64,000 nt of DNA, taken from the NCBI RefSeq assembly GCF_058153355.1, contig NZ_CM177019.1. The stretch is one strand, 5' to 3'. Both the position numbers and the translations under genes were made by a program. Shown piece after piece: positions 29,162-32,100 of this stretch (position 1 is the stretch's first letter; the number at the start of each line of letters is the position of its first letter). Below the pieces are notes generated by a model. The model did not search any database, had not been told where the DNA came from, and was given only the letters and a program-made list of their open reading frames with translations.

Positions 29162-32100
29162 TCAGAACGACCAGTTCACACCAGCCACCGCGTTCCACGG
29201 GGATTCCACACCGGCACCATGGCTATACCCCACCCCGAGATGCCCGCTTAACGAACTGCTGAATGAGGCTTTAATACCTGCCTGGTATATTCCACGTCTG
29301 CCCGACAAATCATTGACAAAATTACCGTCATTATTCACTTTCACCCGGTTATCATCGACAAATTCTTTGCGCACAGCCGCCTTCAGCCACGGCTCAACTT
29401 CCATGCCGTTCCCCAGACGCATGTTGTAACTCAGCGTTGCGCCCAGTTCACGATATATACTGCGGGTATCGACTGATTTCGATTCCATACCATTGGATAA
29501 ATGATATTCGGGGTTGTCAGCGGTGAACCCCGTTAACGATGCATACGGCGTCAGGTTCCAGTTACCATCGGTAAATCGCATCCCGGTTTCAATGTGACCG
29601 CCCAGCCCGTTGCTGCGATAACTGCCGCTGGCGGCTCCACCGCTGCTCATTTTACCGGCTACGTTACTTTCAAAGCGGTTCAGCTTCACGATACCGTCCA
29701 GATAGAAACCACTTTCATGTTCCCAGCTGACATAGCCCCCCAGAGAATAACTGCCCACACTGCCATGTCCTCCACGATCAAAACCGATATGTGAATGGGA
29801 ATAACCCATAAAAGCGCCCAGCGTCGCAATCCCCTCAGGAATACCATTACGGCTATCGATCCCCACCGTCATTCCGGTCAGCGTCTGCTCAAACCCGGCA
29901 CCCGCATCGGTGGTGACATTATTACGGGTGTTATACGTCGTCCCCCAGACATTATTGTTGTGTGGACTCGCTTTCATTATGTTCAACCGCTCGCGAATAC
30001 TGTTTAGCTCAGCATCAAAGACCAACGGTAATGTTGCTGCCATATTGAGTACGGCTGCCGTAGAAGGCGTGATGCGTTTCTCCGGGACGGGTGTCGGCGT
30101 TGGATCGGGAGTCGGGTCTGGTTTCGGAGCCGGTTTTGGGTCTGGTTTTGGATCCGGTTTCGGATTTGGGTTGGGGTCCGGGTTGGGTTTGACATCATTG
30201 GTCAGGTTCCAGTTGCTGTTGCCGTCGCTTTTCAGGACATACTCATAGGTCCCAAGATCAACGAAACCGCCGGTATTACCCAGCGTAAACGAAGCATCCC
30301 CTCCCCCTGTTTTCACCAGCGTCATCGCGTCGTCAGACTGAGGGCTGACGCCGGTATCCTGAACAAAGATTTTAAAATTGCCAGTGGCGTTGTTGTTGAC
30401 GACCAGTTGATCGCCCCGGGAGCCTGCAACGTTGGTATGCAGGTAGAAATTACCGCTGCCGGAAAGTTCACTGGTGGTCAGCGTATTGTAGATACCGTTA
30501 GTTGTGGCAGGCGCTGCTGTTTGTGCTGATAAATAAACATCACCGTCGTTGAGGAGCAAACTGTTTACTCTATATTCGCAGTTGCTGGTGCCTGCACAGG
30601 AATTATTGCTGTTAAGCCAGACACTGCCCCGGCTGGCAGCCGTCAGGTCGGCAAGCGTCGTATCGACGCCATTTCCGATAGTTAATGTCGCGCTATCGGT
30701 AATCCGGACCACCCCTTCAAGTTTAACTGGCGTAACATTATCCCGTGGCGTCATTAACGACAGGCTTCCTGTCGCGCCACTGACCGATGCATCCGCCAGC
30801 GTACCTGCGTAGACGATTGCCGTCCCGCCAGCGACCTGTAGATCTTCTGCCCGGGCCAGAGCCTGAAACTCATCTTTTGACCGACCAAGGGTATATTGCC
30901 CACCGGAATTAACCGTGGTGGCGAAGTCCTGCCCCAGGTTTTGCATTGCCCCACCGTTGCCAACCGTGGAATCGCGAGCTTCGGTACCTGCTAATACCAA
31001 TAAATTACCGCCATTTTCCAGCAGCACATTGGTCGCTAAATTTCCGGCAATGGAAAAGGTGCCGTACTGGTGAGTACCGCTGATTTCAATACCGTTAGCC
31101 GTGCTCGTCTGGAGAGCGGCACCGCTGTTCTGGATGATATCTGTCGCTTTGCCATTATCGTTGACTGTCAGCGTACCGCCTTCATTAATCGTTGTTTTTA
31201 CTGCCTCACCGTTAGCCGAAACTGTTTGTATTCCGCCGTCGTTAATCATTGTCTCATTCGCCACACCCTCGACGATTTGTTCACCGCCGGTAAGCATCGT
31301 GCCAGTCGCAGTGGCTTTTGTTTTGACGATCTCCCGTCCGCCCGCATTGACCTGTGTTTTGGCGGAAGTGGTGTCTGACTCCACGGTTAACACGCCGCCA
31401 TTTGCCAGCAGGATATTGTTCGCCGCATCCTGCTCGATGCTGAACGCGACGCCATCAGCGCGTGTCCCTGTGACCCGCGTCGCCCTGGTGGTTGCCACCA
31501 GCGCGCCCTGGCTACTCTGCTGTATCCCCGTAGCGCTGCCTTTCTCCCGCACATCGAGTGTGCCGCCGTCATTAAGTACCGAGTTTTCAGCCAGACCGCC
31601 CTCATTAACTACCTGTGAACCGCCATTAATAATGGAACCTTCCGTTGTCCCGTTTGCCATAATTTGTTGTAGGCCAGAGACGATATCGGTATTGATCGCC
31701 TTACCATAATTCTGAACGGTTTGCGTGCCGCCTTTGATGTGCGTTTTATCTGTTGACCCACCATCAACAATTTGTTCACCACTTTCGATATTTGCCTCAG
31801 TGGCTAAACCATATACCGTTTGCTTGCCACCTTTGATATTTGCTTTATCAGAAGTGGCACTGGCATATATTGTTTGGGTGCCCGCACTATTGAGTACAGT
31901 GCCAACATCTTTTCCATAAACATCCATTTTGCCGTTGGCATTAATAATCGTATCAACTGCCCGGGAACCAGTAACGACTGTTAATGAGCCAGCGTTTTCC
32001 AGCACTACATTTTTAGCTTCTGAATTCCTGATGTAGAAAGCATCACCAAAACTGTTGGTTCCTTCGATAAGTGTTCCGGAAGTCGTGGAAGCAATTAATG

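Follow-up and report, generated by a model that had tools for sequence, protein, structure and literature searches.

Length constancy and length variation in the proline-dipeptide linker of a YpjA/EhaD-type autotransporter

In the contingency loci of Haemophilus and Neisseria, slipped-strand mispairing takes place within short coding repeats of surface-protein genes, and the repeats shift the reading frame or the spacing of the promoter so that expression is turned on or off. The (Glu-Pro)n(Lys-Pro)n spacer of TonB is generally seen as an extended rigid segment that crosses a compartment and is, to our knowledge, not described as a variable-number tandem repeat (VNTR). The repeats of Bordetella pertactin are immunodominant. 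Termed the GGXXP and PQP regions, they differ in copy number among isolates and are used in typing (PMC12243275). In TibA, the self-associating autotransporter of enterotoxigenic Escherichia coli (ETEC), an 'additional proline-rich domain' (residues 627–677) comes between the junction region and the membrane-embedded domain (PMC3835316), and YpjA has been grouped with biofilm-forming, possibly self-associating autotransporters (PMC9289746). Here, we focus on the proline-rich linker of a YpjA/EhaD-type autotransporter encoded on the minus strand of a 64,000-nucleotide stretch of contig NZ_CM177019.1 (assembly GCF_058153355.1), referred to as the window, whose coordinates are used throughout. 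The original prediction, made from the letters of this stretch, held that the linker is built of tandem 6-bp units that permit in-frame expansion and contraction by slipped-strand mispairing.

The explanation that we consider probable combines a stable, degenerate proline-dipeptide spacer, a length that is rarely changed by slippage and the fast slippage of purer arrays. On this reading, the tract in the window is not a contingency locus. Among related alleles, units are gained and lost in frame with the signatures of tandem duplication, and how often this happens depends on the purity of the repeat, the purest arrays being those of a class of alleles built of Pro-Asn units and termed PN-type.

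The linker lies within a minus-strand open reading frame (ORF; 29162..33967) whose translation gives a long autotransporter containing NDVK-PNPDPNPNPKPDPKPDPKPAPKPDPTPDPTPTPVP-EKRITPST. Near-identical genomes label the gene 'AIDA repeat-containing protein' or 'adhesin-like autotransporter YpjA/EhaD', and the coding sequence is 4677 nt long in the relatives L017, L018 and L020. The passenger is a beta-helix of the AIDA repeat type (Pfam PF16168, E = 1.3e-138, eight stretches), followed by a Pertactin domain (PF03212, E = 5.4e-45, residues 1091–1213) and an Autotransporter domain (PF03797, E = 1.8e-45, residues 1297–1536). When the C-terminal 512 residues were searched against the PDB, pertactin (1DAB) matched query residues 49–168 and the BrkA translocator (3QQ2) matched query residues 230–512 (E = 3.1e-24). 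By its barrel, its passenger and its near-identity to annotated relatives, the protein is a type Va (classical, AIDA-type) autotransporter of the YpjA/EhaD group. Two further matches reflect composition and not homology: a Pfam match to Trypan_PARP, at 30.1 bits against a cutoff of 100, and a PDB match to an AcfD-homologue lipoprotein that covers only the linker (query residues 168–215). The parts of the gene are as follows.

29162..33838, minus strand: coding sequence of the AIDA-type (type Va) autotransporter, 1558 amino acids, from translation, Pfam and the annotation of relatives
30200..30568, minus strand: pertactin-like C-terminal passenger (autochaperone) domain, residues 1091–1213, directly N-terminal to the linker (PF03212, 1DAB)
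30080..30187, minus strand: (Pro-X)18 linker, residues 1218–1253, reading PN PD PN PN PK PD PK PD PK PA PK PD PT PD PT PT PV PE
29951..30079, minus strand: conserved helix and linker ahead of the barrel, KRITPSTAAVLNMAATLPLVFDAELNSIRERL..., directly C-terminal to the Pro-X tract, from the anchor ITPSTAAVLNMAA..PLVFDAEL and alignments to the Vag8 and BrkA translocators
29231..29950, minus strand: autotransporter beta-barrel, residues 1297–1536 (PF03797, 3QQ2)

The linker thus fills the interval from the end of PF03212 (residue 1213) to the ITPSTAAVLNMAA helix ahead of the barrel. Its 36 residues hold 18 of the 31 prolines of the protein, proline making up 0.85% of the residues elsewhere, and a run of this kind is expected by chance at approximately 9e-35. 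The predicted proline-rich linker encoded in 6-bp steps is therefore borne out as a (Pro-X)18 tract at 30080..30187, far beyond chance; the 35-residue peptide quoted with that prediction is correct but occupies 30083..30187, two to three bases away from the interval 30085–30190 that had been assigned to it. In coding order, units 1–9 are CCCAAC CCGGAC CCCAAC CCAAAT CCGAAA CCGGAT CCAAAA CCAGAC CCAAAA, and units 10–18 are CCGGCT CCGAAA CCAGAC CCGACT CCCGAT CCAACG CCGACA CCCGTC CCGGAG. Three parts of the tract can be told apart.

30164..30175, minus strand: units 3–4, CCCAAC CCAAAT (PN PN), atttgggttggg on the plus strand, from unit-by-unit comparison
30116..30163, minus strand: units 5–12, a (PK PD)-type block that gives rise to a period-12/24 signal and holds a private PA unit, from the unit list and the Tandem Repeats Finder rows at 30112..30181
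30080..30115, minus strand: units 13–18, the PT PD PT PT PV PE tail, constant in length across all the full-length E. coli alleles that were read from complete genomes, PN-type included, with point changes only

At the level of DNA, the tract is a far less regular object than its translation. On the plus strand and in register, 17 of the 18 hexamers begin with GG and 12 fit the proposed GGNTYN pattern, so that this much of the predicted 6-bp unit is present, but Tandem Repeats Finder reported no period-6 array for the tract; the 6-bp periodicity accordingly belongs to the dipeptide code and not to repeated DNA units. The arrays it did report, at 30112..30181, have a period of 12 (4.5 copies, 76% matches) or 24 (2.0 copies at 91% and 2.9 copies at 80%). 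No unit in the window tract is directly repeated as a perfect copy. At periods of 6, 12 and 24, exact self-matches extend over no more than 4, 8 and 11 nt, respectively. As a control, synonymous codons were resampled for the same peptide, either by approximate E. coli codon usage or by permuting the codons of the tract itself. The period-6 matching fraction was 0.539, against 0.541–0.565 in the simulations, and no period exceeded simulation; the longest exact period-6 run of 4 nt compares with simulated means of 5.8–6.7 nt, 97–99% of simulations giving a run at least as long. Since the observed periodicity does not surpass the simulated one, the 6-bp period is fully explained by the dipeptide pattern, with no sign of recent DNA duplication. 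The window tract lacks the perfect head-to-tail unit copies that a hypermutable contingency or VNTR locus needs, and it is a poor slippage substrate; the heterogeneity of its codons and X residues makes for a stable allele.

The same periodicity could in principle stem from a gene on the opposite strand. A plus-strand ORF of 112 amino acids (29910..30248) is present and translates to a Gly-rich peptide, ...GTGVGVGSGVGSGFGAGFGSGFGSGFGFGLGSGLG..., but it lies wholly antisense within a 1558-residue gene that has three strong Pfam domains, and RefSeq annotates it in none of the relatives examined. The Gly-rich frame is an automatic mirror of the CCN codons, and as a gene, or as the origin of the periodic signal, this ORF can practically be dismissed.

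Linker lengths were compared in finished assemblies of E. coli, a set of 5426 complete genomes. A 901-nt query that includes the linker has a match in 2557 of them; the full-length matches, which come from 2483 genomes, are 94.4–99.9% identical. With a 191-nt linker query, 60 of the 2523 matching records were sampled in even steps down the ranking, and 58 of them belong to three length classes.

18 units: 19 of 60 rows, span 191 nt, window type
19 units: 30 of 60 rows, span 197 nt, K-12, ATCC 8739 and many others
20 units: 9 of 60 rows, span 203 nt, O157:H7, O145 and O169:H41

The two other rows are exceptional and of PN-type: EC581 has 44 units, 37 of them Pro-Asn, and O139:H1 W13-16 has 30 PN units followed by IS1203. 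The same classes of 18, 19 and 20 units recur in the 901-nt search, and each has its own narrow identity value, from which it follows that length tracks lineage.

In the 14 alleles that were read, length changes by whole units within the linker. The 20-unit allele of O157 and O145 equals the 18-unit allele plus a perfect 12-bp duplication, CCCAACCCAAAT, of units 3–4; the CCAAAT half of the same pair is duplicated in L010, which thereby carries one additional CCAAAT (a perfect 6-bp duplication), and is massively expanded in the PN-type alleles. The K-12 type has one additional PN unit among synonymous changes. Two apparent length changes proved to lie outside the linker: the 905-nt span of O157 F8492 contains a 20-unit linker and lacks 8 nt elsewhere in a pseudogene, and the coding sequence of L019, longer by 6 nt, also differs outside the linker. 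Within units 5–12, the PA unit CCGGCT (30130..30135) has GCT where GAT would give the CCGGAT (Pro-Asp) found in other alleles read, the remainder of which have another unit at this place. This unit is private to the window, the best match to the 191-nt linker region being 99.5% and none reaching 100% in the genomes searched.

Length is constant within the 18-unit class. All 19 sampled rows of the class have 18 units despite point divergence of up to 3.7%, and all five window-type alleles read at the same locus have exactly 18 units and carry point substitutions. Five different nucleotide alleles were seen in the class, with the amino-acid differences D/A, D/G, D/E and a second D/A, and its members have undergone 1–7 substitutions per 191 nt with no unit gained or lost. 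The prolines are invariant, and the X position varies (N, D, K, A, T, V, E, I and G) among alleles of equal length. In the window-type allele, sequence changes more readily than length. Copy number does not differ among very close relatives of window type and does so among those of PN-type.

These observations bear on the proposal that the window tract is itself a hypermutable, contingency-type repeat, in which slipped-strand mispairing produces length heterogeneity within populations. A unit of 6 bp preserves the reading frame, the product is a surface protein and PN-type alleles at the very same locus are hypervariable, all of which would suit such a repeat. The tract nevertheless has no perfect tandem copy of a unit and only the short exact runs given above, and its 18 units persist in 19 of 19 sampled records of the class and in five of five same-locus alleles across the substitutions noted, so that we regard this proposal as very unlikely. 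Comparison of lengths among strains, which the original prediction had named as its check, showed that linkers are not identical in length (18, 19 and 20 units in ypjA-type alleles, 23–44 in PN-type). In-frame change by whole units is thus real among alleles, but the window allele, a poor slippage substrate constant at 18, is not the ready source of length variation that had been envisaged; its expansion or contraction is a slow evolutionary process.

Fast change is seen in the PN-type genes, which are YpjA/EhaD-like (ETEC4075, MLI121, SCU-105) and occupy the orthologous position, the window's own locus between minE and ymgJ. They are 96% identical to the window from minE through the barrel and have the same linker anchors and the same 7-unit tail. 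Their passenger is shorter than that of the window protein, the coding sequence measuring 3357–3471 nt (approximately 1118–1156 amino acids), and their linker is a pure compound array of CCAAAT and CCGAAC, 23–44 units long and hypervariable, where that of the window is interrupted and has 18. The PN array is equivalent to window positions 30116..30187 (L008, L015, L016 and L021–L028, the minE locus of other strains). Its architecture is fixed: with CCAAAT written as a and CCGAAC as B, it reads aaBB(Ba)n aaB(a)m, a pure CCAAAT / CCGAACCCAAAT array, and among nine strains n lies between 3 and 9 and m between 5 and 16. Seven strains with the swine-type allele have no mismatch in 312 nt of immediate flank, and two human strains have 1–2 mismatches in the 162-nt 5′ flank of the array. 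Two 60-row lists contain all but two of the 22 lengths possible from 23 to 44 units, and two alleles of 44 units differ inside, (Ba)9a12 against (Ba)7a16, an instance of length homoplasy. In the pig strains ETEC4075, ETEC4068, ETEC4077 and ETEC6333, 15,783 nt of flank with 0–1 single-nucleotide polymorphisms (SNPs) surround four different arrays, (Ba)7a16, (Ba)7a15, (Ba)9a6 and (Ba)9a9, which shows that pure arrays are far more mutable than the surrounding DNA.

Assembly error was rejected as the cause of this variation. When the query spans the linker alone, PN-type spans differ by multiples of 6 bp except in two 690-nt rows, and the twice-sequenced strains THO-008, CB209, O17_K12a and KK19-02 agree with themselves. 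The two 690-nt rows are H114 and H115 (HCP5S3_I2 and LCP30S3_I5) and reflect a frameshift, inside the array or close to it, or else an error in the assembly consensus. Insertion elements were also met at the ends of linkers and genes: in O139:H1 W13-16 (L009, approximately 290..330) IS1203 stands right after the last PN unit and truncates the gene, and in O145 RM9872 (L007, 1..152) another IS3-family element cuts the 3′ end of canonical ypjA.

Neither the PN array nor the window tract corresponds to a locus of the generic E. coli multiple-locus VNTR analysis (MLVA) scheme GECM-10 (CVN001–017 and CCR001). CVN016 was plausible by its copy numbers; with up to two mismatches allowed, the 20 GECM-10 primers (PMC8143711, Table 1) have no site in the window or in any of L014, L015 and L016. 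No published account of linker-length polymorphism in YpjA/EhaD, or of the PN array, was found in a search that omitted most subscription journals, which leaves novelty unproven; such articles on YpjA/EhaD as came up make no mention of the linker.

The gene's position in the genome probably has a bearing on how its linker was acquired.

28528..28794, plus strand: minE, the marker of the locus, from translation of the MinE form, with the same arrangement in L015–L020

From minE it is 368 nt downstream to the end of the autotransporter gene; minC, minD, minE and the autotransporter gene together take up 26978..33838, and the latter stands between minE and ymgJ/ymgG. This is not the context of the canonical ypjA locus (ypjA-ypjC-ileY-gabDTP), as seen in L014. 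This 1558-residue allele occurs at the minE locus in only 18 of the 5426 genomes, at 98.8–99.6% identity. Strain 100117 has both copies (L014 and L020); over a 3869-nt stretch with the linker inside it (window 29153..33020), their identity is 98.9%. This identity begins 9 nt past the stop codon, and beyond the 3869-nt stretch, in the 5′ quarter of the gene and the upstream region, it falls to approximately 81%. A step of this kind is what gene conversion between paralogs leaves behind, and such conversion probably put a ypjA-type linker at the minE locus.

Length differences might then be no more than imported allele segments, moved by homologous recombination or gene conversion between paralogous loci and lineages, with the repeat structure irrelevant. 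The paralogs of strain 100117 and the coincidence of length classes with sequence classes are what such import would produce. Recombination, however, moves variants and does not create them; the differences are perfect 6- or 12-bp tandem duplications, and PN arrays that change on flanks with 0–1 SNP in 15.8 kb cannot be accounted for in this manner. As the whole explanation, we therefore hold it unlikely.

Several points nonetheless weigh against the combined explanation given at the outset, in which a stable spacer rarely slips and purer arrays slip fast. The classes of 18, 19 and 20 units could have spread by recombination and not by repeated slippage, and the gene conversion evident in strain 100117 shows that exchange between paralogs does occur. 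Some PN-type genes are pseudogenes, so that their variation may be neutral. The census consists of samples of 40–60 rows per search and of identity bands, drawn from approximately 2500 loci.

According to the combined explanation, the spacer would join the folded C-terminal end of the passenger (the pertactin-like autochaperone) to the helix that plugs the outer-membrane barrel. Only the alternating prolines would be under constraint, the X residues and all third codon positions being free to drift, and it is this drift that would make the DNA a degenerate repeat. From time to time, replication slippage or unequal exchange between neighbouring near-identical hexamers or dodecamers would add or remove units in frame; these are the molecular mechanisms that we infer. 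In the interrupted allele, unit change would be rarer than point substitution, so that the length stays at 18 within a lineage. Where the linker has turned into a pure CCAAAT / CCGAACCCAAAT array, as in the PN-type, slippage would be fast and would give the range of 23–44 units.

The view of the tract as a spacer draws on homologues, which a protein search found in E. albertii, Citrobacter, Salmonella and Erwinia and among E. coli paralogs. They were aligned on the conserved anchors GTYEY.L...W.L and ITPSTAAVLNMAA (alignment A1, columns ~630–725). Between these anchors, the YejO-type E. coli paralogs (P0020 and P0057, approximately 50% identity) have a linker of 0 residues, E. albertii has 20, 32 or 34 residues of PD/PK units, Citrobacter has an unrelated Pro-rich PEPEPTPEPEP..., Salmonella has an unrelated Pro-rich PVDPVEPPVDPVEP..., and the Erwinia homologue (P0100) has approximately 110 Pro/Asp/Glu-rich residues. 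That the segment keeps its place but is free to vary in sequence and length speaks for a spacer and against a specific motif or an element on which secretion depends. The opposite view, that the tract is a specific functional motif (a site of ligand binding, cleavage or glycosylation, for example) or an element required for secretion, can appeal to the proline-rich domain of TibA at the same position (PMC3835316) and to the fact that the tract is the first passenger segment out of the barrel. It is hard to reconcile with X residues that are not conserved, with sequences that are unrelated among the four genera or species above, and with YejO-type paralogs that do entirely without the tract; we consider it quite unlikely.

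As a spacer, the tract is probably an extended, polyproline-II-like stalk that sets the distance between passenger and membrane, as suggested by the alternation of proline with hydrophilic partners and by the range of 0 to approximately 110 residues in homologues. Such a stalk would leave the mouth of the barrel and carry the beta-helical passenger. At an estimated 0.3 nm per residue, 36 residues are predicted to span approximately 11 nm and 88 residues approximately 27 nm. A more speculative extension, which we think rather unlikely though worth stating, is that the stalk is tunable: PN arrays would act as a fast dial of 23–44 units (~14–27 nm) for the reach of the adhesin past O-antigen or capsule, and gene conversion from canonical ypjA would lock the length at 18 units, as in the window strain.

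Further observations were made on the gene and its surroundings. The RefSeq start in near-identical genes is the ATG at 33838 (MNRTSRYYF...); the frame is open for 43 codons upstream of it, to a GTG at 33967 (33839..33967), an extension that is probably not translated. In the N-terminal part of the passenger, a 54-bp tandem repeat (33372..33487; 2.1 copies, 85% matches), equivalent to 18 codons, is a second possible origin of in-frame length change. Farther along, only ~0.5 kb (35125..35651) lies between ymgD and pdeG, and judging from ORF sizes alone, the ycgH autotransporter gene (2.4–2.7 kb) present there in L015 and L016 is absent from the window.

The tract serves as a caution that a striking amino-acid periodicity does not imply a mutable DNA repeat. 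The linker of the window is itself ordinary; of more interest are the unusual locus, the gene conversion between paralogs and the hypervariable PN array of other strains. Interrupted and pure arrays at one locus offer a clean contrast for how purity controls slippage in an E. coli coding sequence. One family, moreover, provides a natural length series of 0 (YejO-type), 18–20 (ypjA-type) and 23–44 units (PN-type), which makes it testable whether the length of the stalk matters to adhesins reaching past lipopolysaccharide. The PN array may also help to type porcine ETEC lineages at high resolution.

Set beside the known systems, the window protein is closest to YpjA/EhaD of K-12 and O157:H7, with which it shares the domain plan, approximately 95% nucleotide identity across the barrel, linker and autochaperone region, and a linker of the same design with an identical PT...PVPE tail. 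The differences lie in the locus (near ileY and gabDTP for the canonical gene, beside minE for that of the window), in the number of units (19 in K-12, 20 in O157 and 18 in the window) and in the N-terminal quarter and upstream region, where the window type is only ~81% identical to the canonical copy. Residues 1218–1253 form a Pro-rich segment between the autochaperone region and the membrane domain, as in TibA, whose proline-rich domain fills the same architectural slot and is similar in size, a likeness of position and size. With the repeats of pertactin, the linker has in common that both are short proline-containing coding repeats of a classical autotransporter; the pertactin units, however, are 15 and 9 bp long and are situated inside the passenger or at its end, whereas those of the window are 6 bp long and lie in the linker, and we know of no immune role for a tract of the YpjA/EhaD type. 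TonB likewise alternates proline dipeptides with charged partners, but it is a periplasmic energy transducer of the inner membrane, unrelated to the window linker in sequence and ancestry. Unlike the contingency loci of Haemophilus and Neisseria, finally, the linker changes in steps that keep the frame and alter length only, and the allele in the window is without the perfect repeats that such loci require.

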